Origin: Tenrec ecaudatus
Lineage: Eukaryota
NCBI RefSeq assembly: GCF_050624435.1
Contig: NC_134541.1
Span: 125,086,480 to 125,150,479, forward strand
Direction: 5' to 3'
Length of the DNA stretch: 64,000 nucleotides
The translations under genes were made by a program, and so were the position numbers. Under the pieces are notes generated by a model that saw only the letters and a program-made list of their open reading frames with translations, was not told the DNA's origin and made no database searches. Below, piece after piece: positions 5,789 through 30,804 of this stretch (positions are counted from its first letter, which is position 1; every line of letters starts with the position of its first letter).

Positions 5789-6035
5789 GCATTGCCATCA
5801 ACAGGAACCTCAGAGAGGTTGGGTCCAAACCCCAAATCCTCACCGCCGTCAAGTCAGCTGGCTCGCGGTGACCTTCGAGGGCAGGGTAAAACTGCCCCTG
5901 GAGGGTTCCCAGCCTGTAGCTCTTTACCGGAGTAGAAAGCCTCATCTTTCTCCCAGTGGGCAGCTGCTGGATTAGAACTGCTGACCTGGAGGTTAACAGC
6001 CCACTGTTTAACCACAACGCCAGAAAGAGCCAGTC
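5789..6035 (-). mobile_element. AfroSINE-related tRNA-derived SINE (reverse orientation)
   Basis: Its tail is gaactgctgacctggaggttaacagcccactgtttaaccacaacgcc; the reverse complement matches the SINE head. Confidence 0.6.
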
Positions 6036-6183
6036 AGTGGCAGCGCTCAGGATCCACCGCCGGCTATCTGGCTGCAAGTGTGGTGCTTTTTCTGTTGTGT
6101 TCCAGCCACGTCTTCTCCGGGTCTCAGATTCTTTTTTCCTTCAAAGAAGGTACAGAGAATTTTCATCCCGCCCTTGAGTTTGT

Positions 6184-6372
6184 GATGCTCTGGTGGCATA
6201 ATGGTTGCACATTGGGCTTCGATCCACAAGGTCGGCGGTTTGAAACCACCATCCGCCCTTTGTATAACTGTTAGAGTCTCGGAAGCCTACAGGGGCATTC
6301 GCCGTGTCTGATGCCTGATAGGGTCTCTATGTCGGAGTTCACTCAACGGCAGTGAGTTTTCTCCGTTTGTGG
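6184..6372 (+). mobile_element. AfroSINE
   Basis: It runs gatgctctggtggcataatggttgcacattgggcttcgatccacaaggtcggcggtttgaaaccaccatccgcc...tcaacggcagtgagttttc. Confidence 0.75.
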
Positions 6373-7664
6373 TCCTTGGTTCTCTGTAAGTCTCTTCTTG
6401 GAAGAGCTCATTCGCACTCCTCCTCTGCTCCCCTCTTCCCGGGGGTGTCCATGTCCTATGTTTGGATGCCTTCACTCCCATCCTGTCCCCGCTCTTGCAC
6501 GCTGAGGCCTGGTTTTGCGTGTGTACATTGCAGATCCAAATGCCTCTGAGCTGCAGAGAGCTCGTCCTGTTTCTTAGTTTCGTTTTCTGCACTTGGCACT
6601 CAAGGGCTCGGGCTGCCTTGTGTGCATTTAGCCTGTCACTTCCAGCTGCTGGACAAGAATCACCGCATTTTATTTACCCATTCCCCGGGGGCGGAGACCC
6701 CGCTTTGTGTCACCCGACCCCCACACACCGTGCCCCAGGGAGCCTCCTTCACCATGTGTCCCCTGGTGGCCCGAGCCAGGGTTTCTCGGAGTGTGGCTGG
6801 GAGAGGCGCTAGTTCATTAGCCTTTTATGCCTGTAGCCCTGTCAGCCGGATGCCAGGAATCCTGTTTCCGAGCAACCTCAGTCACACGTGGCATCTGTAG
6901 CTTTCTGACTTTGCCTGACTGATGAGGACCTCGTTTGAATTTGCATGCTCTGACTAATGATGTTGAGCATGTTTGTAAACTCACTAGTGTTTCTTTTTGT
7001 TTCCCCTCCTGTGAACTGCCTATTCATATTCTTTACCTAATTTCCTACCGAGTTTCCTGTTTATTTTGGTGGTTTCTTCCTTTCTCTTTTTTTGTTGCTT
7101 TGCAGGAGGAGTTCCTTGCATATTTTAGCTCAATCTTTTGCAGCCGGGGAAACAGGAGGCCTGTTAGCCTAAGGCACTGGCACATAATAAATTAGCTTTC
7201 CCCTTCATACCCAGAACTGCCGATTGCAATGTCCGGGTTGAACCCACTAGCTCCTCCACCGGAGAACGTTGAGACTGGCTGCTTCTATAAAGATTCACAG
7301 CCGCAAAAACCCTTTGGAGTTTCGAGATGAGTCCAGGTTGATTCAGTGGTAGTGGGCTGGGTCTGTGGGCACCTGGACTGGTGCCATTTACCTGGGATCC
7401 TGGGGAGAACGGAGAAAATAAGCAAATTACTTTCTGGGGCTCAAGCCTCGGCTGAGCAGGCCCAGCTAAGAACAGTTGTTCCCCTTAGAAATTTTTAGTC
7501 CGTGTTAGACGTGGGCAAAATTGTTTCTCTCAGAATGTGGCCTATCTGCGTCATTCGCTGTTGCATAGAAATCTTAGATTTATTTATAATTACAAAAAGC
7601 CATTTTTTAAAAGTAGAATTGTGCATTTTAGAAATCTAGAAAACACCGACAAAACAAAAGCACC

Positions 7665-7668
<4 letters not shown>

Positions 7669-7695
<27 letters not shown>
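7669..7695. repeat. (TG)n microsatellite
   Basis: The tract is tgtgtgtgtgtgtgtgtgtgtgtgtg. Confidence 0.9.
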
Positions 7696-8099
7696 ACTTT
7701 GCCAAAAGACAGGTTTGTGTTATTTTCAAATCTGCCCTTTTTTGTTGTTGCTGCTAATGACTGCCATCTTTTCATGTCAGTAGGTTAATATAGTACCCAG
7801 GCCACATTCAAATTGCTCCATATTCAGAGTGTTCTGTAAATGCCTCTTAGAGCCGGCGTGGCGTGTCTAGCCTGAACCCACATTGGGCCCTCTCATTGGG
7901 TCTGGTTGTGAACGCTTCTTCGGCCCGTTCTAAAACATGGTACTGAATCATGAAGGAGACCTCCCGTTGCCCTGCATCACGAACCACTCTCTGAACTTGG
8001 TTGTTTCCTCTTGATCAGCCTGCCCTGCCCTGCCTTGCCAGTCTAGAACAAGCAGATAGATTTAAAGGTTTGATCTGAAACACCTTGACAAGAATACTC

Positions 8100-8650
8100 T
8101 TTGATGAGTGTGGTAGTTCCCTAATGTGGGAAGAGTGTAGGGTGGAGTCTAGGCCGTCAATCTGGAGATAGCCAATGAGACTTCTGTGTGGGCGTGGCCT
8201 TCTCCGAATTCTGGGAAATCTGTGACTTCCTCCTTGGAGGCAGAAGACACCTCTCTCTCTCTCTCTGCTACTCCCTGGGAGACATTGCAGAAGACAAGCC
8301 ACATGGACGCAACCAGACCTCGGAAACTGGAGAAGCCACAGAGAGACCCTGGCCAGCACTGAGATGCTTACAACGCCACTGGATCCAAAGACTTTCTACC
8401 CACTGGCCTGTGATCTTCTGCATTCGGCATCATTGCATGTGTTGCATGAGTCTGAAGAGAACTTTATAGATTGATATCAGAAATATGTGCTAGTATCAGA
8501 CTTATGGACTTGATCTGGACTGGGCTGGGGTGTTTTCTCCATGTTCAGTTGCTCTTGTATATAAACCTCACCCTTATACACATATGTGTGTCCATGGATC
8601 TGTGTCTCCAGTCCCCCCAGACTCACACAATGAGAGTCTGCATCCCTCGT
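8100..8650 (+). mobile_element. Unclassified ~550-bp interspersed repeat (R-family), copy 1, in KCTD13 intron 2
   Basis: It is about 85-90% similar to 63365-63900 and 57625-58550, and to the reverse complement of 56560-57125. Shared blocks include gagtctaggccgtcaatctggagatagcc, aagccacatggacgcaaccaga and ccactggcctgtgatc. Confidence 0.6.
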
Positions 8651-11169
8651 TGAAGTCACATTGAGAGACAGCTAATGCTGCTCATAGGACCCGTCCCTAG
8701 TGACGCTCGTGACTGGCTCTAGATGCAGGTGAAGGCCATTTGGTCCTCAGTTGTAGGAACGTTTCCTTCTCGCCAGCTCTGAAGTCATCCGTGAGGTTAT
8801 CTGTTACTTCTTAATCACACAGCCACTGATGGCCCTGCCTGGGCCGTCCATACTAGGGGTGGCTATGGTCCTGTCATCGGGCCACAGGGAACCCTGTAGG
8901 TGGCATTACTGATGAAAGCACAAGTGTTCATAGTAGCTGGCAGTCGTCTTAGGTGGCATGTGGTCAGGCCCCTTAATAATTTTTTGCCTGATGGTGTCCA
9001 TTTAAGAAACCTTTTCTCTATTTTATATTTTCTGTCCAGCTCTATAGTTTCAGTCTTTGAATGTGAGCGGAATTCAGTTGTAAGTGTGAATTGCAAAGAG
9101 ACTTAACTTTTTGTGTGTTTCCCCTCCCCCCCCCTTCCATAAAGTGAGCTAGATTTTCCAGTGCTACGAACTAAACTATCTCTGTTAGTCGGTGCTTAAG
9201 TGGCTACCCTTGATTCTTGGCTCCTGTATCCGGGCCCTCCTTTAATCCCCTCCCGCGTTGAATAGGGTGGACGTGTGTAACCATTCAGACAATTGTGGAA
9301 ACAACGGTGTGTGTCCCCTGAAGGGAAGTCCTAAACGACAGCCCCGCCGCCACCTTGCACTCTGTCTCTGGTCAGTCACTTTGGGGGCAGCCGGGCCTCA
9401 TGGGGAGGGAGAGAGCCCTGGGAGAAGCCCTGCCCACTGCCAGCACCCACCTACCCACCGTGAGAGCAGCGGATCCTCCAGGCTCCGCCCAATCTGCAGG
9501 TGACCGGAGCCGTGGCCAGCATCTTGACCAGAGCTTCCTGAGTAGCCCCGAGCAGCCAGCCAAGCCAGCTCCAAATTTCTGGCCCAGAGACACTGCTTGG
9601 TGCTGGTTGCTGTTTGAAGTTGCTAACTGTGGAGTTGTTCGTTGAACAGTGATAGCCAAGACAGGCTTTTTAGTTTCTGAAGTCGGGCTGTGCCTGCAAA
9701 CGGCACACGTTGGCGAGCTTTTCAGAGTCTTTGAATGCCAGCCTTTGAGGCGGTGCCGGTGGCAGTTCAGGAACAGTGACTACAATGTAAACTTGGAGAA
9801 CGGGATCCTTGTTAAGCAGTGGTAGGAAGTTTGGCAACAGTGCCGTTGCATCTTTGCCTCTTGTTGGGTTGTTGTCGGGCAGCGTCCAATCCGCTCAACT
9901 CACAGTCACCCCAAGAGCCTCCGAGGGGAGCGCGGTCCATCCCTGCACCGAGCTCACAGCTGTTCTTCCGTCTGAACCCCACTGTGGCAGCCTCCTGAAG
10001 GGCCTTCCTCCTCTCCAAGCATGCTGTCCCTCCAGGGCCTGGTCTCCTGACCGCACGTCCAAGGCACGTGAGGCAAAGTCTCGCCATCCCTGCCCCCAGG
10101 AGCACGCTGGCTGGACGCCTTCCAAGACAGATCCGTCTGTTCCTGGGCAGTCCGAGGGGCCTCCACTTTTCTTCCCCAGCACCGTAGTTCAGCTGCATCA
10201 GTTCCTCTGATCTTCCTCAGTCACCGTGCAGCTGAGACTTGCATGCGAGGCCACTGAACCTCCCGTGGCTTCCACTACCTCCCGACGACCCGTATTGAAA
10301 TCATCCTAATCCTCTAATGTGCTCTGCTTCGTTTTCAGTTGGTGCTTTTCTGCGTTAGTTGGTCCTTTGTGCTAGGCGCTTTGTTTTTTCTGTCCTTGAT
10401 TTAGGGTTTTCTGTATGGGGGAGTCAGGCCGGTGGACCTAGGGAGAGAGCGTCTGGATTAATCATTCCCCGGGAGCCCAGAGGGGGCTGTGGTGGGGGAA
10501 GGCCACAGCAGCAAGGGGTTCAGAGGAAAGAAATGGTCCAAAGCCAACTGTGGTGAGAATTGCACAGCCCCTGCCAATATGACTGAACTGTTGAATGGTA
10601 TAAAATGTCCATGTTGTATAATCATATTACACAAGGGCACAATGCCATGCATGACAACATGCACATAATACACATAACATGCTGTGTCATATGCGACAGC
10701 CCAGTAAAAAACAAACAAAAATGAAAATACCATGGTGTGGGTCAGGCACACCTTAGAACTCAGAGTAACGTCCTTGCTTTTCAACCCTTTATGAGCCCTT
10801 TCAACCTAGGGCAGTCTACTCTGCCCTGTCAGGTCACCGAATCAAAATCAGCTCAACGGATTTTTTGTTTGGGTTTGCTTTTGTTGCTGGGTAGGTAAGT
10901 TTTTAAGGCTGTTTACAAAAACACAAACGATAAACTCGTGGCAGCAAAAATGAAACTCAGTCTAAGCTGCGGTTAATATACTGCTCAGAAAATAGCACTC
11001 AAGTCTCAGAAGTCAGTTAGGTATTTGGCTAAACGACTACATTAGAAAAGAAAGATCACTGTGATTAGATAGCTCGCAGTATTCATCAAAATACCCAGAA
11101 TGCACATAATCAAATAAAAGTTTTATTGATTTTTTAAAAAAACAACGAGCTCTCGTATACCTAATTCCA

Positions 11170-12400
11170 GGCTTCATTTGATCTCTGGACTGCCGTTACC
11201 ACGAGCATTGATTACGGATCCAAGCAAGACACAGTCCTTAACAACTTCAGTCTTACCCTGGCCTGCTGGTTCAGTTGTGAGGATTTTGATTTTTTTTACA
11301 CTGAGTTGTATCCATACCAAGTCCTTGATCTTCATCGGCAAGCGCTTCAGGCCCTCCTCACGTTCAGCAAGCAGGCTCGAGTTGTCGGGTAATAAGTCTT
11401 CCTCCAATCCTGAAGCTGCGTTCTTCGTCATCTGTACCAGCTCCTGTGATGACTTGTCAGCAGACAGGTTGAGTAAGCATCCTGAGAGGATACAGCCCTG
11501 ACGCACCTCTCTCAGGATTTTAACCCGGGCAGCCGTCCCGCATTCTGTTTGCACAACTGCCCCTTGATCCATGTACAAGTTCTGCATGAGCCCAGTGTAG
11601 TGTTCTGGGATTCCCAGTCTTCTCAAGGCTCTCCGCGAGTTTGTCCTGATCCACACAGCTGAATTCCTTTACAAGTAATCATCTTTCTGGCATTCTCCAC
11701 GTTGCGCCAAGGTCTGTCTGACATCAGCAATGATCGACCTTGTTCCACGTCCTCTTCTGGATCCTTCCGGAGCCTCTGGCAGCTCCCGGTCCATGTGCTG
11801 CTGCCCCCGTGGCTGCATGAGCTTCAGTGAATGTTTGCGTGCCTGGGGTATCAGCGACACTGCCTTGTCATTTGAGCATTCTTTTTCTTTGGAATGTGTA
11901 CAAACAGGAGCTCTTCCAGCCAGCTGCCAAGTAGCACGTGTTTCATTTTCCAAATATCCTTGCATCAACAAGTGAGTGCTTCCAGTGCTTCACCAGCTTG
12001 TTGAGACATTGCAGTTGGTGTTCCGTGCCTTCCTGGCACCTTGCCAACACTCTGAGCGCAACTTGACTTCTCCTGTCAAAACCAGCGGTGCCCGCTCCTG
12101 TGCCAGCTCTTGAAACGGCGGGCTGTCCACAGCCTCCTTTAGGGCAGTGACTGCGCCTGCAATCTGCTCTAGATGCCTCCAGCACCCGCCCATATTTTGC
12201 CCTCGGAATCTTTCAAGATCGCAACTCAAGGCTTGAATTTTTTCTCAAGTTCTTTTCCGTTGAAGCTGAGCATGCTCTTCCCGGTTCGGTTTTCCAGCCA
12301 GGTGTTTGCCCATTTCATTAGTGCCATTTCACACTCTCTTTTCCAGCCGCCCTTTGCAATTCCGCTAGCGTAGAACATTTACCTAAGATACGGGGTGATA
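11170..12400 (-). mobile_element. RTE-type (BovB/RTE-like) LINE fragment, degenerate reverse-transcriptase ORF, in KCTD13 intron 2
   Basis: The minus-strand ORFs contain the RTE reverse-transcriptase-like motif ...VRQGCILSGCLLNL... (compare RTE/BovB VRQGCILSPYLFNLY). The frames are broken. RTE is the LINE partner of AfroSINEs. Confidence 0.5.
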
Positions 12401-14848
12401 GAGGAGACCTCCAAGCAGCGCTGAAGCATCCACCTGCTTGTTCCTGGAGGTGGTGAGAGGCGTTAGGAGGGGGCAGAACCGTTGAGCAGGACGGAGCCAG
12501 GACTGGTTGGCCTTGCGCCTTCCCAGCCTCTCGAGATAAGAGGAGAGGTTAAAGTGAACAACAGAGCCTTCTCAGGGAAACACGGCCTAAAGATAGCATT
12601 GAAGTTACTGCAGACTCCTTTTATGACCTTGGGGGGCGGGGGGGGCGTGTGTGTGCCACAGTGTAATTCCACACAGTGCCAGGACTTCACAGTGTTGACA
12701 CTGTGTCTGGGTAGAAGTTGTACAATACTGCTTGGCACGATTGAACTGTGGCGGGATGTAGGCATTAACTCCCAGTGAAACAAGCAAACAAGTGCTCCTC
12801 CGCAGTAACCCCAGAAAGACGCGGACTTGTCTCAGGTGGACGGGTGTGACTTGGGTGGAAGGAAGTGAAACCCCGAAAGATTCCTGGGCAGCACCTGTGC
12901 CCCTTTGGAGAGGTTGCACAACGAGGGGAGAGGGCTTTTGCGCAGGCAGGAAGCAGGCTGAGAAAAGGGGGGGCCAGCCACCACCCTCCAGTGCAGAGAG
13001 CACCGAGGAATCACTCCGGGAGAAGGGTAGGAACGGAGGAACGAAGTCACACAGCGGCTACGACATGCCTCCTGCTTCCCCGTCTCCCACGAGACCGATT
13101 GTGGTGACCAGAGGCCTTTCTCATCACTGTGCCCTGGGGGTGCAGAGGTGGAGCACGTCGCTCTTGGGCTCCCAGGTCTTTAGATCCAGAGGAAACATGT
13201 TAAGGGGCCATAGTTTGAGCTGCCCATCCCCACGGGGCTCTGACTTCGATGACAAGCTGATGCCGTCAGGAGATGAGATTTTTGGAGGGTGAGTGTATTT
13301 TGCATGTGGGTCAGCTGGGGCCAGAGTCTGGACACTGGAGCCAGCTTCTGAGTCGGCCCGCCATGCTTCAAATTGCATCCCCGGGGTGATCTCCCCCGTC
13401 ACCGAACAGGCCCGACATCTGTGGCCAGGAGGCTATTGAGGAGATAGATGCTGACGTGCGACTTCTGCACCAGGCCCCTCAAAGACACGGCGGTCTCTGC
13501 CCTGCACCCTTGGCTCATTTGCCCCCGGGAGGCCAGCTGCCAGGCCATGCGGTCACTTACAAAACCCCGTGGAGACGTTCAAAACGACAGGACTCCGATG
13601 CTTCCTGCCAACAGCTGGAGCGTGTGAGCTCTCTCGGAAACAGCCTGCGGATGCAGTCGAGCCTTCGAAGGACCGCAGCCCTGCCTGGTCTCTTGACCGC
13701 ACCTTCCCCGGGGACTCATGCCCAGCTAAGCCGCTGCTCAATTCCTCCCCTACGGCCAACACCATCCACGACTCTGCCCACCGAGTGGCTTCCCTTTTAT
13801 AAACAGAAGGTTCTCAGTGCTCCGCTTAGGAGCTCTCTTCTCTCCGTCAGTTCACTGCTTTCTCTGACGGCTCTAGGGCATCTCTGGAGCCCTGGTGGAG
13901 CGAGCAATGGTCACGCTGTGGGCTGCCGGATGCAGGGTCAGTAGTTGGAGACCCGTGGCCGCGCCACAGGAGAAAGACAAGGCGCTCTGTTCCCCTAGAG
14001 AGTGACCATCTTGGAAACCCCCAGGGGCAGCCCTGCCCTGTCCTGTGGGGTCGCTGTGAGGCAGCATGGACTTGAGGGTGTGGGGGTTGGGGGCAGTGTG
14101 TCTCAACATCTGGTAAGGACAGCCTCTCCTGTCTGTCCCTCCTTTTAGAAATAGGCTTTTCCTCTGTCCTGCTAATTTTAGCGAACGCTTTCTGCAGCTC
14201 TCACAATAAACACCTTCTGGCATCACCCATGTGGTCTTCGGGTTGGAAGAGGTGGAAAGGCTTGGACCTGAAAGTTCTGGAAGAGAAAGAAGCAAAGCCC
14301 CGTGTCCGGTCCTGTTTCTGTCTCCAGCCTTGCCTCCCCCCCACCCCGTTCCCCACCACCACCACAGTCATTCACTCACCAGATACTTAGGGGGGCTCCG
14401 CTGTGGACGGTGCACTTACTCCGCGGGCTGGAAGAAACCAACCATCAACAGAGATACCTCTCAGACGAGGAGCGTGTGAAGAAGAACGTGACCCGGAGAT
14501 GTGAAAGGCAGGAGGCCGAGGCGGCCGCTTCAGCCAGGGCTCTTAGGAGGAGCAGTGGCCAAGCTGTGACCCCAGAGGAGCTGCCCGGGGAGAGGACTGG
14601 GAGAGGGCAGGGGGCCCAGTGGGGTTGTGAAGAGGTGGGGCTGAAGTCCCAGTGAGTCAGGTGGGGTGGGCTTAGGAGTCATGGTCAGAGAGCTCCACAG
14701 GCCTTGGATCCTGCAGCGTCCACCGCGGCCCTGGAAGGAGTTTGGGTGTGGTTTTCTCTCCCACGTCCAGCAGGCCAGTTTTGGAGGCTCTGAAGAGGGG
14801 AGCAGCCTTTGGTTCTGCTGTTAACCACTTTATGCCTTCCTTCCCCAG

Positions 14849-14938
14849 CAAAAAAGGGAGACCCTGTCCCCGCTGTGCCTCATCCCCACGGTGACCTCTC
14901 CCCGGGAGGAGCAGCAGCTCCTGGCCAGCACCTCAAAG
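14849..14938 (+). CDS. KCTD13: KCTD13 coding exon 3
   Basis: The acceptor ttccccag| precedes 14849. The exon encodes QKRETLSPLCLIPTVTSPREEQQLLASTSK. The donor is aag|gtgagc after 14938. The preceding intron is about 10.8 kb. Confidence 0.9.
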
Positions 14939-15017
14939 GTGAGCCCTGCAGGCTGGAGGCTGGGGCCGCCCTGGGCAGTCTGACCCTCCGTCTTGCTCCA
15001 TCCTTCCTCTCCCACAG

Positions 15018-15070
15018 CCCGTGGTGAAGCTCCTGCACAACCGCAGCAACAACAAGTACTCCTACACCAG
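15018..15070 (+). CDS. KCTD13: KCTD13 coding exon 4
   Basis: The acceptor cccacag| precedes 15018. The exon encodes PVVKLLHNRSNNKYSYT(S). The donor is ccag|gtgacg after 15070, in phase 2. Confidence 0.9.
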
Positions 15071-16186
15071 GTGACGGCCGGGGGGATTGGGAGTGGGTGG
15101 GTGGCAGGCCGGAGTCCTGGGCTTGGGGTCGAGGAGGAGGGCCCACCCACCCGCCTGCCTGCCTGCCTGGGCCAAGTCTAGGAAGGCCACTTTCCCACTG
15201 GGTCCTTGGGTCAGGCCATTCTCACTCTGCCGGAACAGGGGACTGCTGTTTGTCATAGGCTACCTGGAGCCAGGTGAGGGTAAAGTGACAGGTGGCTAGC
15301 ATTTCGTAAGCCCTTATTTCACAGCAGGCCTTGCACCAAGCACCCTGCATCTATAGGTCGCCCCCAATGTACGATGCAATTCCAATGCTACAACTCAACC
15401 AGAAGTAGGAAGTAGGTTCTGGTGACGAAAGTCGACTACCTTTTTTTTAGGGGGGAGGGGTTTTTAATAGTATTTCCTTCTGTTGTCCCTATCTTTATAA
15501 ATCTGATCGGTATTTATTTGTCTTTGGGTTGGGGGGGTGAGAATATTAGCCACAAACGCTCAGCTCCAACAGAGGTGCTCCCTGGTCCCAGACCCCTGCT
15601 GTGAGTGCAGTCTGACTTGAGGTGACTGCTGTGTGGGCGTTCCCAGACCCAGCAGACAGCCTGTCTCCTTAAAGCAACTGCCAGGTTTGACCCGCACACC
15701 TCCTTTTCGGCAGCATAACCTCTACCCCTCTTGGCCACCAGGGCTCCCTGTTCACACGTCACGTAAGCCAGACAGGACACAGGCCGTCACCACCCCTCTT
15801 GAGTTGGGGACTGTGTATTGCACGGCTTCCGTACGGCCGTGCGAGGCAGTCTGTGCTGTGTGTCCTCTGTGCAGACGAGGAGGTAGAGAGGTGAAGCAGC
15901 TTAGCTCCGGGCACTGAGTTCCACGGTGGCTGTGTGAGCTGGCAGGCCAACAAGCCTGCTCCCGAACCCGCCTGCCTGGCCACCTTGCCCGGCTGAGATC
16001 TGCCCGGCAAAGGCTGCTTCCCCTCCGAGGCCAGCTTAGCCTGGCTCTAGAGGTGGAGGAAGCCCCCTACCCCTGGACAGGACCTGAGCGCAGGGGGTCT
16101 GGGACCCTGTCCTGCTGGGGAGGGAGTTGGGGCAGGGTTGTGGGGGAGCCAGTTGTGCTGAGGCCCCCTGGCCCCGTGCTCCTCAG

Positions 16187-16382
16187 CACCTCGGATGATA
16201 ACCTGCTGAAGAACATCGAACTGTTTGACAAGCTGGCCCTGCGCTTCCACGGGCGGCTGCTCTTCCTTAAAGACGTCCTGGGGGACGAGATCTGCTGCTG
16301 GTCCTTCTACGGGCAGGGCCGCAAGATCGCCGAGGTGTGCTGCACCTCCATCGTCTACGCCACGGAGAAGAAGCAGACCAAG
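16187..16382 (+). CDS. KCTD13: KCTD13 coding exon 5
   Basis: The acceptor cctcag| precedes 16187. The exon encodes (S)[65 protein letters not shown]. The donor is aag|gtcagg after 16382. Confidence 0.9.
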
Positions 16383-17279
16383 GTCAGGAGGGCCTCGGGT
16401 CTGGGCGGGAAGGAAGTGCGGGCTGCAGCAGGACCCTGGGTGAAGGCAGCGCAGCAGCTTGCGCCAGAGCAAGTCCACTCGTGAGCGTCAGGACTGTGGG
16501 GCTGTGGACCCTTGGACAGGCCACCCTCACCTCCATGGCTCTCCGCTTCTCTGCTGTGGCCTGGGGCTGTTGGAGTCTGGTGGACTCTTGATGTAGGACC
16601 CTCTGGCTGGGTTCAAGGCTGCCTGCAGTCCCCTGCCGTGGCACGCCGGTTTGAAAGTGTGTGTGTTTCTCTGTGTAGTCGGATCTCAGAAAGGTCCCCG
16701 CCCAACAGCCCAGTGAGGTCTCCTCTGCTCAGGACCACAGGGGTCCTTAGAACAAGCTCTGGGCCTGCAGTGCGGAGCCGCCACCGGGGCGCCTGTCAGC
16801 ACCTGCTCTCTGCACAACACTGCGCCCAGCCAGGTCCCAACAAAGGTGGCCCAAGTGCGGAGTCACGTGTGAGCCCCTTGTCCCCAGTTCCAGCAGAGGG
16901 CACCGGTCTGGTCCCTTCGGACCTTGGTTAGACAGGCCAGCGTTCCTGCAGGTATCAGCAGCCGGGGTCCCCCTCCCTCAGCCGGAGCAGCCCACACGCC
17001 CCTCCTCTCGAAGTCCCTTTTCCTTCTCTCTATCTGCCACCTGGAGTTGGGTTTTAATCCCTAAGTCACACTTTCTGTGAGACCCCTCCCTCACTCACGA
17101 GCTTTTTCACCCAAGACCCCAGACAACGTTTGGCTCAATGCAGTGTCCAGCGTAGCCTGGGCTCTTGCTCCAGCAGCAGGGTGAAGCTCGTTGTGGGCAG
17201 GGCTGTGTCTTTTTCTGTTCGGAATCTTCCTAGTGGTCAGCAGTTTACAGAGGATGCTTTCTCCTCCCATAAAGAGTTA

Positions 17280-17362
17280 CCGTCTCAGAAACTCACAGGG
17301 GCAGTTCTGCCCTGTCCTGGAGGGTCACCATGAGTCGGCATCGACTCCATGGCAGTGAGGTT
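17280..17362 (+). mobile_element. AfroSINE 3' fragment
   Basis: It reads tctcagaaactcacaggggcagttctgccctgtcctggagggtcaccatgagtcggcatcgactccatggcagtgaggttg. Confidence 0.6.
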
Positions 17363-18387
17363 GTCCTCTCCTTACTACTAGCGGGCCCCTAGGAAGCATT
17401 TCTCAGATGTGTCTGAAAAAGTAAGCAACTGGGCTGTCACGGGGGGCCCAGGCAGCTGAGCCCACAATTCAGATCCGCTGCCCAGGAGCTATACGCAGGA
17501 CACCCCCATCCAAAGCCTCACAGGGAGGAGCCCCTCCCGTCGCCCCTCTGATTCCGTCCCTGCCTGCTCTCCCTCTGCCTGACATGAACTCCACGTCACG
17601 GTGGACGCAGACACACCTGCCCCAGCGCTGCCTCTTCCAGCCGTCCACTTCCTGGCCTCCCCCTCCTCCTCTGTCTTGTTGGGCAGGGGTCCCCGCAGTG
17701 AGGCCTTTCCTGACCTCCCTCTTTAAAGCCGTAACCTTCCAGCCGGGGTCGTCCTCATGCCCTCCCCCGACACATCGTTCACTGTGGCGTCTGTCCTCAC
17801 CGCCTGACGGACGCGCTGGACGTAGTGTGTGTCTATGTGCGTGCTCCCTCCACCGCACACGCTTCCTGAGAGCGGGGGTTTGCTCTGTTTGGCTCACGAC
17901 TATATTTCTGATGCCTGGAACAGTGCCTGGCACAGAATAGCCGCTCCGTAACTCTCTGCCAGGTGAAAGAAGTTACCGAGAAGCTTGGCAGGCAGAGGGT
18001 AACGCAGCCGAGTCCAGAGCTGGGCCTTGACGTGCAGGTGTGACTTTGTGGAGCAGAGAAGTCGTAGAGAGGCCAGGCCAGGGTGGGCAAACCTGAGGTG
18101 GAGAGCCAATCAATCAGTTCCCTTGCAACAATTTAAAAATTATTCAAGAGCCATAAACAAATATATACACAAACAAACAAAGTCACTATTATCTTAATAA
18201 CATCCTTTAATTGAAACTATCAGAATCTATTTTCAGTTTTAGTTCAGAGCCACGTGTATGTACCAAAAGAGCCACGTTTGCCGACCCGGGCGGGGTCCAG
18301 GCCACAGGGCCTGTGCCTGGGGGGTGGGCTGGCTCTGTGCAGCAGGTCCAGAGGGGGGAGGCTCAGGGGCTGACTGGTGTTTTGCAG

Positions 18388-18624
18388 GTGGAATTCCCAG
18401 AGGCCCGGATCTTTGAGGAGACATTGAACATCCTGATCTACGAGACCCCCCGGGGCCCGGACCCCGCCCTCCTGGAGGCCCTCGGGGGCGCCGCGGGAGG
18501 TGGTGGGGCAGGCCGCGGGGAGGATGAGGAGAACCGAGAGCACCGTGTCCGCAGGATCCATGTCCGGCGTCACATCACCCATGACGAGCGTCCTCACGGG
18601 CAGCAAATTGTCTTCAAGGACTGA
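18388..18624 (+). CDS. KCTD13: KCTD13 coding exon 6 (terminal, includes TGA stop 18622-18624)
   Basis: The acceptor tttgcag| precedes 18388. The exon encodes VEFPEARIFEETLNILIYETPRGPDPALLEALGGAAGGGGAGRGEDEENREHRVRRIHVRRHITHDERPHGQQIVFKD*. The six exons sum to 990 nt, giving 329 aa, the same length as human KCTD13. Confidence 0.9.
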   Translation: MEFPEARIFEETLNILIYETPRGPDPALLEALGGAAGGGGAGRGEDEENREHRVRRIHVRRHITHDERPHGQQIVFKD

Positions 18625-19099
18625 CCTCTGCCCCTGCCCCCTGGAGCTCGGCTGCTCCTGTCCCTGTCCCTTTTGCTTCCCGACCTATGCCCCGGCTCTG
18701 CTGGCCAAGTCGCGGGCCATCCTCCCGGCCCTCTGTTGCATGGTGCCCTTTACGTGGGCCCTTTCCATCGGTTCCCGCCCCTCTGCTGATAACACGGTAC
18801 ATCCCAGACCCTCCCCCTCAGGCAGAGCCCTTCCGATGGGAAGGCCTGCGTTCACCCCCTTAGGCTACCCCGTCTTGTCCCGCCAGTGTTCCGCCCCAGC
18901 GGCTGCAGGACGGTTTCCAGCCCCTTGGCTCATTTTCCAGTCCGCTGCCCATGCCATGGGTCAGTCGGGCCCTGAGTAACACCCCCACCCCTTGACCACT
19001 GTCCCTCCATTGCGCAGGGCAGTTTTCTGCAACTCCCCAGCCCCCAGGTTTTTACCACCTCCTTAACTTTGTGCTCCCCCCTCGACTGGTTTCATATTA

Positions 19100-19105
19100 T
19101 TTATT
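19100..19105 (-). terminator. ASPHD1: AATAAA polyadenylation signal of ASPHD1 on minus strand (plus-strand tttatt)
   Basis: Plus-strand tttatt at 19100-19105 is AATAAA on the minus strand, about 350 nt downstream of the ASPHD1 stop at 19455. It faces the KCTD13 signal only 27 bp away. Confidence 0.5.
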
Positions 19106-19131
19106 ATTTTAATTTTCTATTAAATTATTGG

Positions 19132-19137
19132 AATAAA
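19132..19137 (+). terminator. KCTD13: AATAAA polyadenylation signal of KCTD13 (3'UTR 18625 to ~19155)
   Basis: The hexamer gaATAAAgtg lies about 510 nt downstream of the stop. A GT/T-rich region follows. Confidence 0.6.
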
Positions 19138-19454
19138 GTGGAGGTAAGGGTCTTGTGCTGGCTTCCAGGGAAAGGGACAGGAAGATGGCCGGCATTCAAA
19201 GGGGGCCTGGCCAGTGGGATGGGTGGCGACGTGGGCCCAGGCCCTGAGCATCTGTCTCCCTGAGCGGCATCGTAGGGAAGGAAGGAGGGACGCAGACCTC
19301 AGAGAGGAGTGAAAGCCTGTATTGCGTGCTGGCTGGCCACTGCCCGCCCCCACCCTCAGGCCCACCCACCCACCCACGCTGTGACGACCCCTCATGGTGT
19401 CCCTGAAGGTCACATCCCTCCAGCCCAGGTGTCCGGCGGAAACACCCTCAGAGG

Positions 19455-19564
19455 TCAAAGGTCCGGCGCGAAGACAAAGTCGAGGGCCTGGCGTTCCGCC
19501 CCAGCCACGTTGGGGTGCCACAGGTCCACGATGAAGACCACTCGAGGCCCATCTTCAGGAGCTC
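19455..19564 (-). CDS. ASPHD1: ASPHD1 terminal coding exon (includes stop; plus-strand tca 19455-19457)
   Basis: The reverse complement reads acceptor cccctag|ga gct cct gaa gat and encodes (G)[35 protein letters not shown]. This is the conserved C-terminus of the aspartyl beta-hydroxylase fold; compare ASPH ...FRLIFIVDVWHP. Confidence 0.8.
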
Positions 19565-20176
19565 CTAGGGGACAGGAGAGCAGCTGACCCAAGTACGTCC
19601 GTGCCAGGAGCACCGACCAAAGATGCCTAAAGGCCTCCCGATGGTAAACACATGCCGGGCACCCCCCTCACTGCCAGTGAGTTGGCCCTGACGTGTCACT
19701 CACTGGGACTAGAAGCCCGTCCTTCTCCCAAGGAGCCACTGGAGGTTTTGAAGTGCCGACCTTGCGGATAGCAGCCCGATAGATGGCCAAGAGGCCATCA
19801 TCTTAGCCCTTTATATAGATTAGCTCATAGTCTTCCAAATAAATTGGGGAGATACCCTGTAATCATGCCCATCTTATACAAAGCGGCAGACAGGTTACAC
19901 GGTGTGCTCAAGGTCGCCCAGCTGATGGTGCAGAGCATGGACAGGAAGCCCTGTGCCCCAGACCTAGTCCCCGTGCCGTGCCCCTTGGCCAGCTGAAAGC
20001 CTGCGGGCACCTGCTGAGGAAGGGGAGGCCTGGGTCCCCAGGTGACTGAAGCGGTGATGCCACTTGCTCAAGGTCGTGCAGCTGGCAAACTGCCCGGACA
20101 GGAAGCCAGACGGACTTGATCCTGTAGCTCTCCAGCCTAGGGGCCCTGCACTCATCCCGAGGCCCTCCTAGCAGGC

Positions 20177-20193
20177 GGGGGGGGGGGGGGGGG
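20177..20193. repeat. G17 homopolymer (C17 on ASPHD1 sense strand) starting 6 nt into ASPHD1 intron 2
   Basis: The run is gcaggc-g(17)-cttaccgttatg. On the minus strand this reads cataacg|gtaag then C17. Confidence 0.9.
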
Positions 20194-20198
20194 CTTAC

Positions 20199-20312
20199 CG
20201 TTATGCGCCACCGTGTGCAGGAAGGAGTCATCCACCAGTAGACAGTGCCCTTCAGCCCAGCACTGGGGCTCCCCACCAACCACCAGTTCACAGCCAGCAG
20301 GGATCTTCAATC
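20199..20312 (-). CDS. ASPHD1: ASPHD1 coding exon 2
   Basis: On the minus strand the acceptor is cttcacag|, followed by (G)[37 protein letters not shown](G). The donor is aacg|gtaag. The exon is 114 nt with phase 1 at both ends. Confidence 0.8.
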
Positions 20313-21085
20313 CTGTGAAGAGAGACCTGGGCATCCTCTCCAAGGACCTCGGCAAGTTCGTCACTGAGATCCGAGGGCCCGTTAAATGCCAGGCCTCCCA
20401 GTGGGCCAAGTATAATTATAATACAGTAGCGGATGGAAGGCGCGCTGGGAGACCGAGCACGTGCAGAGGAAAGCATGTGCTACCCCTTAAGAGAAAAGGC
20501 ATTTGCATAAGGACGTGGCATCTCCTTTGGGGCTTTCTGAGTCTACAACATGCCAGGCCCTGCGTCCTGAAGAGGTCTCTGGGAGAACTAACCACCCTGC
20601 CCCAAGCGAGCAGGACATGGCCAAGTGCAGTGGGAAAATGAAGCAGCTAACTCCGCCAGTGGGATTAGGAAGGCGTCCCAGAAGAGGCGTGGCCCTGGAA
20701 AGTCCGAGTTGATGGGGGAAAGGCATTCTCAGTTGAGAGTGTAGCATGCGCCTACCCATCTGCCAGCCTCAGTTCGAGGCTTTCATGGTCGGGGAGGTGG
20801 GGAGGACAAACATGGGGGGTGAGAGGGGAGCTGGAGCACCCCAAAGTGGAGTGCATGTGGCGAAGACCTTGGCATTCACAAGCTTCCTTTTCCTTTGACC
20901 CCCCACCACCCCGTCATAGCAGCATCACCAAGAAAACCACAATCACGACTTGAACACGTCACTGACATCGCTGCCCCTTTTAAACGTAGAGACGGGGGAT
21001 GCTGTTAGAATTTTTAAACGTCTTTTTTTTAATTCAAATGCATTTTGAGGAATATTTTCTCTGGAGGGAAGGCGTGCTGACTACC

Positions 21086-21292
21086 GGAGCCCTGGTGGCA
21101 CAGTGGTCTCCTGTTGGACTGCGGTCACAAAGGTCTGCAGTTTGAAACCACCAGCGGCTCCAAAAGAGAAAGGGCTTCTTCCTACTTCAGTAAAGAGTTC
21201 CGTTTCGGGAGCTCACAGGGGTCATGCTATCCTGTCTTTCAGGGTCAAGTTGCTTTGAGTCGACTCATGCATCGACTCAATGGCAGTGAGGG
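21086..21292 (+). mobile_element. AfroSINE (full length) between KCTD13/ASPHD1 3' ends and ASPHD1 exon 1
   Basis: It runs ggagccctggtggcacagtggtctcctgttggactgcggtcacaaaggtctgcagtttgaaaccaccagcggctcc...gtcgactcatgcatcgactcaatggcagtgagg. Confidence 0.8.
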
Positions 21293-21550
21293 GGGATGAG
21301 TGAGCACTGATGGTCAGTTGGACACAGATTCTTTTTAAATAAGTGAGACAAAAGGACTGCTCAGGAGATGCATGGGACAATGGCACTTGGCCGTGGCGGA
21401 GTGCCTGAGATGGTTCACAGGTAACCGAAGCTCACCTGGTGGACCAGAGGGAGTCGGGGAAGATTTGGGCGCAGAGAGGCCTGCTCACAGCCACAGTGTA
21501 AAGAGCCTAGAGTGGGGGACCGTGAAGGCAAGCAGGTAGCAGCTACTTAC

Positions 21551-22415
21551 CCAGGTGGCATCTGACCCTGGCATTGGTGGGCCCGCAGCGACCCTCAAGT
21601 TGGGCCCCAGGCAGGAGGACCGAAAAACCTGCGCTGCCGAAGGTGTTCGCACTCATGAAGCTCCGAAGGCCCCTCAGTGCCCTATAGGCCCCCGGGCACC
21701 GGCGGCAGTTGCTGGGTTGGCACCTCCCTGCTTGGTACAGCAAGAGCTGGTAGCACCCAGGGGCCAGGGCCGGGGACCAGCCCCGAGGCAGAGGGGTAGC
21801 CCCTGAAAAGTCCCCGCTCACAGCCCCGAAGTCCCGCAAGATGGCAGGGAAGCTGCTCTCTAAGAGCTCCACATCATGCCGTTGGGAATCACGTGGCACA
21901 AACGGGACGGAGGGCAGGTCCGGCAGAAAAAGCAGGCCTGGGCGCTGAATGCCTAGGCCCCCTGGCCCTCCCTCTGGGCCTGGCCCACCCTGAGCTGCTC
22001 GCCTCACCCTGCCCATCCCTGCCCAGGAGTAGCGCCTGGCATAGGCTCGTAGGCGACGACTCACTAGGCCTTCCGTTCTGGCTCCCTCCCCTGGGTCTCC
22101 AGTGCTTCCTGGGCTTGGCCTGGCGGCCCCAGAGCACCCCCCAAGCCCGCCACGGAGCCCCCCAGCCCGGCTCCTAGCCCCCAGGGCCTGCATCTCTTGG
22201 GAGCCCAGGCGGTAGCAGTACCAGAGGAAGAAAGAAGTGAGGGCTCCCAGGAGCAGGGTAAGGGCCGAGGAGGCCAGGGGCAGCGGCCACAGGGGCGCCA
22301 TGGGCAGGGAGGCCTTGGCCAAGAGGCCTGGGGCCTCCCCCAGACCCCGGTTCTCCCCACTTGTCCCCTCCATAGCTGTTCCTGGGCACTCTCCTAGGCT
22401 GTCTCCCTTCCACAT
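21551..22415 (-). CDS. ASPHD1: ASPHD1 coding exon 1 (aspartate beta-hydroxylase domain-containing 1); first in-frame ATG at 22413-22415
   Basis: The minus-strand ORF reads MWKGDSLGECPGTAMEGTSGENRGLGEAPGLLAKASLPMAPLWPLPLASSALTLLLGALTSFFLWYCYRLGSQEMQALGARSRAGG...CPGAYRALRGLRSFMSANTFGSAGFSVLLPGAQLEGRCGPTNARVRCHL(G). The donor is ctgg|gtaagtag at 21550/21551. The ORF track's 'M' at 22421 is actually GTG. An in-frame stop sits upstream at 22482-22484, so the N-terminal extent is uncertain. Confidence 0.75.
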
Positions 22416-22449
22416 TTCCACGTTCCTGCAAGGGGTCCCCTCGTCTCCG

Positions 22450-24460
<2,011 letters not shown>

Positions 24461-24771
24461 TAAGCCCCTACCTGGCAGGGTGGAGAAATGAATGAGGGTA
24501 TGCTTGTAGCTGCATCTTAGGGGTTAAACCCAGGAAGGAGGGCTGGGGGAACTGGGGGTAGGGATGTCTGCGGAGGCAGCAAGAATACCCAGGATACCTG
24601 GGCTGGAGATGGAGGTGCTGGGAGAGACGCCAGGCGCTGCATACGAATGTTCTCGGGCACACGGACAAAGACAGGTGGACAGAGACAGCAATCAGGGACG
24701 AATCTTCTGTCCCCCTACCCATTCTGGTCCCCAGTCAGACTTCAGGGAAAGACACAGAGACTGCGGATAAT

Positions 24772-24883
<112 letters not shown>

Positions 24884-25232
24884 ACACCACACTGAAACCC
24901 AGAGAAAGCCGGGAGGTTGTGAAAGCAAGAGCCAGGAGGTGCTGCCAGTCCGTCCGTCCGCAGAGCCCAGAACGCCATTGAGGTGACAATGAAGGTGGCA
25001 CTGATGATGACCCCTCTCTGTCCCCATCTGGCTGCCCAAGATCCACAGGAGCAGTGGACTTCCTTGAAGGCCCAGCATCCTGAGGGAAGGGGGAGTGTGA
25101 GGGCCGGGATGGGAGGGGCGGCTGGGATCCCCTCCCCCAACCTTGGCTCTCAGCCTTTGGTGGGTCCCTGTGGGTCCCTGCAAACCCAGCTGATTGAATA
25201 AAGAAGAAGGTGCTTTGGAATGAGGTCCCTAA

Positions 25233-25487
<255 letters not shown>

Positions 25488-25804
25488 TGACTGCAGAGTG
25501 TGGGGTGAGAGCCCCTGAAAGGCCATGGCCCTGCAGGGAGGACAGAGACAGCTGGAAAGAGAAGGCGATGGTGAGCGGACACCCAAAGACACCCAGATCC
25601 TGGGATGTGATGGTGAGAGAGAGAGACAGACCCAGAGATGGGTAGAGCCACAAGTCAGGGAGTGAGAGAAATGAAGAGTCTGTACTCTATTGAGAAGGGG
25701 AGGCCTCCCCCCCACCTAGAAGAGAGGGGAAACCTCGGGAGGGGGAGAAACCCAGAGAGTAAGCACCAGGCTGAGTCAAGAGAAGCTCAGAGACAGCTGA
25801 GTGA

Positions 25805-26371
<567 letters not shown>

Positions 26372-26469
26372 TAGGTGGGAGATTGGGCTCCTGGAGCCAG
26401 GTGGAAGGAGGGATGCCAGATGCAGGTGGGAGAGAGACTAACCCTTACTATGTGCCAAAGGAGTGCTGG

Positions 26470-26670
26470 GGGCGGGGCAGCAGTTAAGCACTTGACTTGC
26501 ACTGAAAGGTCAATGGTTCAAGCGCACCCGCCGCTCCTTGAGCTAAAGCGAAGGCAGTCAGCTTCTATAAAAACTATAGCCTTGGAAACCTTCTCAGGCG
26601 GTTCTCCTCTGGCCTACCGGGTCACTGTGAGTCAGTTTCCATTTCAAGACACTAGGTTTGGTTTTGATTA
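26470..26670 (+). mobile_element. AfroSINE
   Basis: It runs ggggcagcagttaagcacttgacttgcactgaaaggtcaatggttcaagcgcacccgccgctcc...ggcctaccgggtcactgtgagtcagtttcc. Confidence 0.65.
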
Positions 26671-26794
26671 CGCCGTCCCAAAAAGTCCCGGGGAGGCAGT
26701 CTTCAAGCCAGGGCTGCTAACCCAGAGGTTAGGACCCACCACCGCCCTGCGGGAGAATCGCCTCCACTGAGATTCAAAACCCAAACCACCCAAC

Positions 26795-26962
26795 ACACGG
26801 CCATCGAGTCCATGCTGACCACCCGCTGTGGGTTTCCCAGACTGGAACTCTTTATGGGAGTAGAAAGCCCTATCTTTCTCCCGGTGCATGGCTGGTGGTT
26901 TCGAACTGATGACCTTGCGGTTAGCAGCCCAATGTGTAACCACAATGCCACCACGGCCTGGG
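26795..26962 (-). mobile_element. AfroSINE (reverse orientation)
   Basis: It runs caacacacggccatcgagtccatgctgaccacccgctgtgggtttc...ggtggtttcgaactgatgaccttgcggttagcagcccaatgtgtaaccacaatgccaccacggcc. Confidence 0.7.
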
Positions 26963-27344
26963 GACTCCTGTGGGAGTAGTAGAGCCCTGCCAGCAGCTTG
27001 CTAGGAGTTAGAATCTGCTCCGTGGCGGCCAACAGGGACAAGCACCATGTGCCAAGATCCCTGGGGTTGCCCAAACGGTTTGTGCTCAACTGAGAACCTA
27101 AGGGTGGGTGGGTGGGTGGATCCCACCCCGGGGGGCCGTGGGAGAAAGGCCTGGTGATGTGCTTCTGTAAAGATGACAGCCCCGAACCCGCCCTGGACCC
27201 CGTTCTGCTCTGTAACTCATGGGTTGTCACCAATCAGAAGCAAGTAGTCCCAGGCTGCAGGCTGGATTTGGCTACCATGTGCCTGGCCCCTTTCCCCGAG
27301 GTTCATCTAGATTACAGCTGGGGGAGGGAGGCACTGGGTGGTAA

Positions 27345-27659
<315 letters not shown>

Positions 27660-27805
27660 TGACTCATCCGATCTCCACGATGCTCCTTGAGTTTGATAAC
27701 ATGACTCATATCACCATGGTGTTGGGGCCACTGTGAGGGGGATGGGGGGCAGGGGGCCTTAAGGAATCGCCCCCTCACCTGACCGACTTGCGCTGCCTTC
27801 TCTAG

Positions 27806-28123
<318 letters not shown>

Positions 28124-29677
28124 TGATTTTATGTCGGCGGATTCACACATCTAAGTGGCAGTACATCTCTTCAGTCAGCAAAGATTTATAGTGTCTGCTT
28201 CGGACCAGGTCATAGCCTTGCGGAGAGGCATGAACAGCCAGTGAGAAATCTGAGGTCAAGGATTCAATCCAGCGGAGAGACAAACTGGTCACCAGGGGGA
28301 TCTTGGTTCCAGGCAGGAAGAACTACGGTGGAGGTGGAGGAGAGGCAGGCACAAGGAACAGATAACCAAGGAGTCTGCGTTTCTCCTAAGGCTAGGGATG
28401 CTTTCTGTGTCCAGACAGACGAAAAGGCTCATTCCAATTCCTAGAGAGGAAGGGCAATCTTGAGGAGCTGAGGGAATTCAGCCTGAAAGACAGGGCTGCC
28501 CTGGTGTGTGTGACCTGTTTGTTTCCCACCTCTACCTCGCTGGGCCTTGCAGGCTCCTCTGAAAAGTGATCTTACAACACCCAGAGTGTTATTAGGAGAA
28601 ATGAGTCCATGCAGGTAGCATGCTTAAAGCAATGTCTGGTAGACACCTGGCGGTTACTGCTTGTAGTGATTACACCCAGAGTGGGAGGGGGGGAGCAGGG
28701 GGGACAGGGGCAGGATGGGGGTGGAAACCTGGCTTGGAGGCGGGTTGCATTGAGATCCCCAGCGGCCTGATCATCATCATCATCAGTCAGGAGTGCAGAC
28801 GACTTTATCATGCAGGTGAGGGGGAGGCAGTTTGAAATGGGTTAAGCCTCCAGAGGATGACATTTCTGGTAGCTGTGGGGAGGGCAGGCTATATTCGTGC
28901 ATGACTGCGTTCATGGGCACCCGCCCCCAGGCGACCTACACACCCAGGTACATTCATCCCCACCTGGGCGCACCAGAACCTGCCCCCATGCCAGTGTGCA
29001 TTCCCTCATACGCATGTGCACCGCCGTCCCCATCCTCCAAGAACTCTTCTTCCTGTGTGCAGAATTGGAGGACTTGTGTGTTGCCTGGTGCCCGTGTCCC
29101 CTCCTAGCCTGCCTGGCCCTGTGTCCCCTGCCCCCTGTGAGCCCTGCTGAGACCAAATCCCCTGTGGACGTTAACTGATCACCGTGTGTGTCTTCCTCAC
29201 GTCTCTCCAGCTCCTCCAGAGACCCAGAGCTGCCCACACTCGGCTTCATGGTCAAGGGACCAGTGAGCCAGGCCCATGGGCTTGGTGGCCGTGGGCCTGG
29301 GCAGCACGGAGCACAGATTGGTCCGTGACCAAGTGCTGGACTTCAGGTCTGACAGCACGGCTCTCCCAGGTCTGCTTTAAGCAGCCATCCTCCCCAGGGC
29401 ATTTAAAGTAGGACTCAGAGGCTAAGTGGGACAGTGGAGAGCAGGGCTGCCGCATAGATGGGCCTCCTCTGCCTGCCTCAGTCTGCCCTGCTCTCGGCAG
29501 CCACCCCAAGCACCCATGGGACCAAGACCCCGTTTAAGCCCTTTCCAAGTTGCACTAAAGGGGTCCTCTGCCTCAGAGTGGCTTCCTTACCCTTCTGAAC
29601 AGCCAAAGCTCCCTTCCGCGCTCACCGCAAGTCCAGCAAACCTTCCCACTCATCCCGAACTCTGTCACCAACCACGA

Positions 29678-29870
29678 GGAGCCCTGGTGGCGATGTGGTG
29701 TCTTGTTGGACTGCCAACTGCAAGGTCAGCGGTTCAAAACCACCAGCCGTGTCTCAGGAGAAAGACTGGGCTTCCTATTCCCATGAAGAGGTGTTACAGT
29801 CAGGGACACTCACAAGGGTAGGGGCACCATGCGTCAGCGTCGACTCGACGGCGGGGAGTCAGGTTTGTGG
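29678..29870 (+). mobile_element. AfroSINE
   Basis: It runs ggagccctggtggcgatgtggtgtcttgttggactgccaactgcaaggtcagcggttcaaaaccaccagccg...gtcgactcgacggcggggagtcaggtttg. Confidence 0.8.
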
Positions 29871-30804
29871 TTCTGCACCAGCCACAAATCCATTTGCTTC
29901 TCACAGGAAGGGACCGGAGGGGATGGCCGAGGCAGCCCCTTCTCCCATTGGGGGAAAGAGACTCCAAGGTTAAGTGACCCCAGGACTCCCTCCCACCCAC
30001 CCCCGCCCCAGTCCTCCCGCCACACTCAGCCATTGACCAAGACTGAGGAATAGGCAGTTCATGGTGTCTGAGCACCTTCTCCGGGCCCTGTGGGCGCCGC
30101 GTTTTCTTGGCTGGTTCCAAGTTCATGTCACTTCAGGCGGATCCTCCATGAGAGGAAGCACTGTTGCCATCAACAGGTGAGAGGTCTCTAGAGGCAAAGC
30201 CACCTGCTTAGTCACCTGGCTAACAGGTTGTGAAGCTGGGGTGAGAACTCAGATCTGCTTGACTCCACACTGAGGACCTCCCCAAGGCTGCTTCTGGACG
30301 TGGCCAGCCGGCTAGATTTTCAGAAGTCCAGTAAAGTGTGCGTGGCCTGGTTTAGTCTCTTGGGCAGGTGGGGGGGTGGGCAGCAACAGACGTTGGTTAA
30401 TGTGATGATTGGATGCTACCCTAGGGACTGTGGCAGGCAAGGGAGCAGCCTCTCAGCTAGAAATGGGAAGTGTCAGGAAGGCTTCCCAGAAGCCATCAGC
30501 CCAAGTTACTCCCAAGTTATTTGCTGGAAATTGAGAAAAGGGGAGGAGGGGGGAGTCCTTCCAGTTGGGGCAGCGCTGTGAGCAAAACGCGGATGCACTT
30601 CCGACTGTGGAGGAAACACAGGTTGTAAGTGGCCGGAACCAAAGGCGGAGGCGCTGGGTTGGACTCAGCTGTGGAGGGCCTTAAAGGTCCTCATAGGGCA
30701 TTTGGACTTGACTCGGTGCGCCACCACGGGTCCTGGCAGACGCTATCATCTGCACATCACTGTGTGCTGGAGAGCTGGGGTTTTTTGTTGTCCATCTTGG
30801 TCCT

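Follow-up and report, generated by a model that had tools for sequence, protein, structure and literature searches.

A conserved AT-rich island between the convergent KCTD13 and ASPHD1 genes is a probable shared polyadenylation module

KCTD13 and ASPHD1 run towards each other in the genome of the tenrec Tenrec ecaudatus, and the short interval between their stop codons raises the question of how the 3' ends of both transcripts are formed there, and whether the two mRNAs overlap as a result. We examined a window of 64 kb (the whole stretch of DNA that was analysed, to which all coordinates refer unless another locus is named). Judged from its sequence and conservation, the AT-rich island at 19090-19139, with its imperfect palindrome, is probably a shared cleavage and polyadenylation module that would work in both directions, for KCTD13 on the plus strand and for ASPHD1 on the minus strand. 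The overlap of the two mRNAs that this predicts is, in all likelihood, a side effect of the compact layout that is tolerated, and not a dedicated regulatory device.

Two convergent genes and the signals between them

All six KCTD13 exons were placed by tblastn, with a human KCTD13 sequence as the query. The last coding exon, which is also represented in the list of open reading frames, occupies 18385..18624 on the plus strand and closes with a TGA stop codon at 18622-18624 (C-terminus ...HGQQIVFKD). The spliced protein has KCTD13/BACURD1 orthologues as its best database matches, at 91-95% identity, and carries the Pfam domain BTB_2. ASPHD1 lies on the minus strand in three coding exons with consensus splice sites (22415-21551, 20312-20199 and 19564-19455); the last of these (19455..19564), defined by its splice acceptor and translation, ends in a stop codon at 19457..19455. 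Its spliced protein is 93% identical to ASPHD1 of Echinops telfairi and contains the Pfam domain Asp_Arg_Hydrox. Exon maps, orthologue matches and domains thus bear out the first-pass annotation, which had named these two genes and described them as convergent. They stand tail to tail with stop codons ~830 nt apart and the island in between, and the same order was found in all seven of the other genomes fetched, including that of the echidna, where KCTD13 is absent from the gene calls and its last exon was located by tblastn. The predicted 3' ends would give KCTD13 a 3'UTR of ~525 nt (18625..19150, plus strand) and ASPHD1 one of ~370 nt (19085..19454, minus strand).

Each strand of the island carries two poly(A) hexamers. 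The probable main signals, proposed on the basis of sequence and conservation, are an AATAAA at 19132-19137 on the plus strand for KCTD13 and an AATAAA at 19105..19100 on the minus strand for ASPHD1, exactly where the first-pass annotation had put them, with 26 bases in between. A point missing from that annotation is that an ATTAAA lies just 5' of the AATAAA on either strand, at 19119-19124 for KCTD13 (plus) and at 19113..19108 for ASPHD1 (minus), where it may act as an auxiliary or alternative signal; these two are likewise conserved. The four hexamers make up an imperfect inverted repeat, TTTATTATTTTAATTT / AAATTATTGGAATAAA, at 19100..19137, with arms at 19100-19115 and 19122-19137 that a repeat search scored as 75% complementary and a spacer of 6 nt. 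The repeat lies within the 50-nt island, which has ~25% GC within flanks of 60-70% GC.

This arrangement is more than chance: a facing TTTATT...AATAAA pair within 60 nt occurs only here in the whole 64-kb window, it sits exactly between the convergent genes, and it is near-invariant across mammals. The palindrome was also considered as a stable RNA hairpin, and this was ruled out by minimum free energies like those of shuffled sequences (z-scores of -0.3 to -1.8). No Rfam family was recognized, the sole match in 18000-20500 falling far under threshold, and an exact-pattern search for the island in metagenome contigs returned no match. A scan for bacterial-type promoters and terminators gave nothing meaningful and is irrelevant for this DNA.

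No other strong poly(A) signal is present in either 3'UTR. When 13 poly(A) hexamer variants were scanned in both 3'UTRs of the window, the KCTD13 3'UTR contained none of the 13 before 19119 and none outside the island, and the ASPHD1 3'UTR outside the island contained only a weak AATACA at 19323. Among the mammals compared, no conserved alternative canonical signal was found on either strand within ~2.5 kb. Two arrangements that would have altered the predicted overlap were rejected on these comparisons. A conserved distal KCTD13 signal, producing a long overlap, is ruled out because the AATAAA at 19838 (plus strand) is common only to Echinops, and a conserved proximal ASPHD1 signal, preventing any overlap, is found in none of the mammals, with candidates in the turtle only. 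The distal AATAAA (19838-19843) sits in ASPHD1 intron 2 and appears to be lineage-specific; if used, it would extend the KCTD13 3'UTR to ~1.2 kb, spanning the entire last ASPHD1 exon.

The sequences flanking the island differ between the two sides. Beyond the KCTD13 hexamer lies a GU-rich downstream element, GGGUCUUGUGCUGG (GGGTCTTGTGCTGG), at 19148..19161 on the plus strand, a putative CstF binding site that begins 11 nt and ends 24 nt past the hexamer, at sequence level within the limit of ~40 nt or less, and is kept in part as gguctgGTGCTGG in other eutherians. On the ASPHD1 side, the downstream region GAGGGGGGAG...GGAGGTGG is G-rich, poorly conserved and without a clear GU- or U-rich element. 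G-rich auxiliary downstream elements are known at poly(A) sites, and the stretch GAGGGGGGAG...GGAGGUGG...UGGGGGCUGGGG at 19033..19083 (minus strand) may be one, as far as its sequence can suggest. A CA dinucleotide is present on this side at 19088/19087. The UGUA upstream motif is absent on both strands in the window.

Approximately 30 nt present in other mammals (ctaggctggcctgggcctgcaccagctca-like) are missing from the window at 19072/19073, with a smaller gap in Echinops. The gap lies just 5' of the island on the KCTD13 strand and just 3' of the predicted ASPHD1 cleavage site, which suggests that the ASPHD1 downstream region is evolutionarily labile.

Conservation of the island and the age of its parts

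We compared the window with loci from an ape, Echinops, the rodent Mastomys, the bovid Budorcas, the marsupial Sarcophilus, the echidna Tachyglossus and the turtle Pangshura. In a multiple alignment, scored by the share of species that match the window, the island is the peak of the stop-to-stop interval, at 0.85-0.95 over 19087-19146 versus a mean of 0.54. Within 19090-19139, Mastomys, Budorcas and an assembled RNA contig match the window at every base (50/50 each); the ape and Echinops match it at 49/50, Sarcophilus at 43/50 and Tachyglossus at 38/50. Across the whole stop-to-stop interval, nucleotide identity of the eutherian UTRs to the window is 58-64%, with Echinops at 91%.

The layout is conserved as well as the letters. 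The first-pass annotation had proposed comparing the spacing of the two signals across species, and it proved to be an identical 32 nt, with all four hexamers present, in the four eutherian genomes (ape, Echinops, rodent and bovid), and 29 nt with nearly the same layout in the marsupial. Each hexamer has its own phylogenetic range: the KCTD13 ATTAAA (19119-19124) is kept in every mammal examined and also in the turtle; the KCTD13 AATAAA (19132-19137) in therians and the turtle, with TATAAA in its place in the echidna; the ASPHD1 ATTAAA (19113..19108) in therians; and the ASPHD1 AATAAA (19105..19100) in therians, echidna and turtle. The echidna island is shorter (ataatttattattttatattaaattattggtataaagtg): its ASPHD1 strand has AATAAA, and its KCTD13 strand has both ATTAAA and TATAAA. 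Because the echidna carries this shorter version, the module is older than the monotreme/therian split. The turtle has an intergenic interval of 2.4 kb, in which ttctattaaattattgtaataaag is retained with a tttatt 41 nt upstream, and its ASPHD1 has candidate signals nearer the stop codon than the island. As the turtle retains ttctattaaattattgtaataaag, the KCTD13 half of the module is older still, predating the mammal/sauropsid split.

Why should 50 bases be held so nearly invariant? The best explanation is that every base is constrained from both strands simultaneously, with the hexamers of one mRNA doubling as the U-rich sequence that lies upstream in the other. An unlikely alternative is that the island is kept mainly as a post-transcriptional element of KCTD13, such as an AU-rich element or a site for an RNA-binding protein or microRNA; the minus-strand AATAAA would then be a mere complement, which ASPHD1 uses incidentally or bypasses by ending at a non-canonical site elsewhere. 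This reading draws on a nonamer matching the AU-rich-element consensus, UUAUUUAUU (TTATTTATT), at 19097..19105 of the KCTD13 strand, which covers the very bases complementary to the ASPHD1 AATAAA, and on the fact that 50/50 identity exceeds the need of two hexamers. The weak downstream element on the ASPHD1 side also fits it, as does retention of TTTATT in the turtle despite nearer candidate signals for ASPHD1. Against it, the ASPHD1 3'UTR is without another canonical signal in all six mammals compared, a spliced ASPHD1 RNA contig extends to the island, and the echidna retains the AATAAA of the ASPHD1 strand without the exact nonamer. The two roles are compatible with one another, and a post-transcriptional role of the nonamer in KCTD13 mRNA may add to the constraint on a sequence whose main job would still be 3'-end formation of both genes.

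Two other features of the 3'UTRs emerged from the comparison. Within the KCTD13 3'UTR, blocks at 18682-18726 (GGCTCTGCTGGCCAAGTCG(C/T)GGG) and ~18783-18800 (AACACGGTACAT(C/T)CCAG) are kept from afrotherian to marsupial and may be microRNA or RNA-binding-protein sites. In the ape locus, an Alu-like insertion with a poly(A) tract (~11175-11310 of that locus) lies in the ASPHD1 3'UTR between the island and the stop codon, and accounts for the longer ape stop-to-stop distance of 972 nt.

Predicted mRNA overlap and transcript evidence

If the island works as a shared polyadenylation module, RNA from either strand would present ATTAAA and then AATAAA, the two sets together forming the imperfect palindrome. 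RNA polymerase II transcribing KCTD13 would cross the island, CPSF would bind the AAUAAA at 19132-19137, and with the GU-rich sequence at 19148-19161 as downstream element, cleavage would fall at ~19147-19165. Polymerase II arriving from the opposite side would expose the ASPHD1 AAUAAA at 19105..19100, with cleavage expected at ~19090-19075, for example at the CA mentioned above.

In the sense of its own transcript, each AATAAA lies beyond the complement of the other, and therefore, when both are used, the overlap must measure 38 nt (19100-19137) or more. Mammalian cleavage usually occurs 10-30 nt past the hexamer, and with this distance the geometry gives an overlap of 58-98 nt. The mature mRNAs would then be complementary over ~60-90 nt of AU-rich sequence at their 3' ends, and from the positions of the hexamers and the usual cleavage distance we place the predicted overlap region at 19087..19150 on both strands. 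Thus, the 60-90 nt put forward in the first-pass annotation agrees with the geometry, on the condition that both signals are used, and the transcript evidence is consistent with it.

That evidence comes from one Logan contig (L010, run SRR22936722), the RNA contig included in the comparison above. It contains the full spliced ASPHD1, with the exon 2/3 junction visibly spliced, followed by the 3'UTR, the island and another ~215 nt orthologous to KCTD13 3'UTR sequence, in antisense. It shows that ASPHD1 mRNA reaches the island. The extension fits either two overlapping mRNAs joined by an unstranded assembler or reads from read-through transcripts or pre-mRNA. Only this contig is informative on 3' ends: L003 and L009 cover upstream or unspliced sequence, four pig KCTD13 contigs from Logan end 100-245 nt past the stop codon, short of the island, and a look-up of KCTD13 in Latimeria gave no match. 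At 1738-1755 of L010, the KCTD13 hexamer lies within a perfect palindrome, AATAAAGTTTATT, which creates an extra AATAAA on the ASPHD1 strand upstream of the island.

Genome annotation offers a further view of transcript ends. In a chimpanzee assembly, the annotated ranges of ASPHD1 and KCTD13 (6001-24589 versus 11926-30589 of the fetched locus) overlap by ~12.6 kb, whereas the ranges in the other ape assembly are without such an overlap. The chimpanzee annotation suggests ASPHD1 read-through isoforms, antisense to KCTD13, in primates, and therefore at least some ASPHD1 transcripts appear to run past the island.

These isoforms are among the observations that could favour the overlap as a regulatory device, in which 3'-end pairing, polymerase collision or read-through couples the expression of KCTD13 and ASPHD1. 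Possible routes include masking of the AU-rich element or of microRNA sites, RNA editing by ADAR, and transcriptional interference. The complementarity is perfect, with a computed cofold energy of ~-83 kcal/mol for a 61-nt duplex, conservation is extreme, and there are tail-to-tail precedents in which the expression of one partner, or its choice of poly(A) site, is affected by the other (PMC5966356; mechanisms in PMC10491648). However, the overlap is short and the duplex has only 18% GC, no interaction of KCTD13 and ASPHD1 is reported in the literature searched, and dual-strand processing constraints suffice to explain the conservation. We consider such a device quite improbable. The first-pass annotation had presented the locus as a natural sense-antisense pair with potential for transcriptional interference or duplex formation; what stands of this interpretation is its structural part, namely convergent genes, sole canonical signals and a conserved layout, and the regulatory part is speculative. 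It had also pointed to the dosage sensitivity of 16p11.2, which is context and not evidence.

Relation to known systems and significance

In one data set, ~23% of the human genes expressed were sense-antisense genes; tail-to-tail pairs overlap at poly(A) sites, and the selection of these sites can be swayed by the partner, RNASEH2C-KAT5 being an example (PMC5966356). Closely apposed transcript ends are enriched among coding/coding convergent pairs in mouse and human, and it has been suggested that poly(A) signals are shared (PMC10491648). Tail-to-tail coding pairs are thus a frequent and well-described class, of which KCTD13/ASPHD1 is a very clean example, and because the class is so common, the arrangement is less remarkable than the first-pass annotation implied.

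As in RNASEH2C-KAT5, the KCTD13 and ASPHD1 genes lie on opposite strands with 3' ends that meet, and the overlap, here predicted, is at the polyadenylation region. In RNASEH2C-KAT5 the 3'UTRs overlap over a long distance, there is a choice of proximal and distal sites, and one site in human is newly evolved, whereas KCTD13/ASPHD1 would have an overlap of ~60-90 nt, one palindromic AT island and a single conserved site per gene. Yeast has bidirectional termination zones, as outlined in a preprint (bioRxiv 10.1101/2022.11.02.514956), and Arabidopsis pairs share poly(A) signals (as cited in PMC10491648). Both resemble the island in that a compact AT-rich sequence serves transcription from both sides, which for the island is our reading of its layout. 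The yeast and Arabidopsis signals are degenerate, AT-rich and set in compact genomes; here, in contrast, canonical mammalian AAUAAA and AUUAAA are kept base for base in eutherians and stay recognizable, though more substituted, in the marsupial and the monotreme, and the genome is a large one, without space pressure for sharing.

The island also resembles a canonical mammalian poly(A) site, with AUUAAA then AAUAAA on each strand, a U/A-rich context and a GU-rich element on the KCTD13 side. It departs from such a site in having no UGUA and a G-rich ASPHD1 downstream region, and in that each site supplies, through its complement, the U-rich context upstream of its partner. We found no paper on an overlap or interaction of KCTD13 and ASPHD1 in the literature searched, where 'antisense' in one set of matches most likely refers, going by titles and abstracts, to morpholino reagents. 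The pair is absent from the supplements of the antisense-pair papers checked.

As a candidate driver of the 16p11.2 copy-number syndromes, KCTD13 has been widely studied. Should both signals be in use, 3'-end formation of KCTD13 and of ASPHD1 depends on a single stretch of 50 bases, and a variant or edit in the island, or a knockout that deletes one 3' end, would hit both genes. Such a double hit bears on the reading of mouse and cell models. Additionally, the island is a clean natural palindromic mammalian poly(A) module, suited to testing whether dual-strand constraint leads to ultra-conservation. A more far-reaching idea, to which we give little chance, is that the island may be a conserved coupling node, where the two 3' ends pair or the polymerases interfere and through which one gene tunes the 3'-end choice, stability or AU-rich-element accessibility of the other in neurons. 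If true, this would place a cis-regulatory link inside the dosage-sensitive 16p11.2 region and account for 50 bases that are near-invariant in eutherians.

The surroundings of the two genes yielded some minor observations. In all fetched loci, the head-to-head neighbour of ASPHD1 is a SEZ6L2-like gene that encodes Sushi and CUB domains; in the window, the corresponding open reading frames begin at ~25800 on the plus strand and include a CUB-like one at 27351-27662. ASPHD1 intron 2 starts with a run of ~17 C right after the exon 2 splice donor (GGTAAGCCCCCCCCCCCCCCCCCGCC; 20180-20198, minus strand). Dinucleotide microsatellites of the (GA)n/(CA)n type at ~24730-24900 and ~7690-7720 appear as ERERER/CVCVCV and THTHTH runs in the translations of open reading frames.
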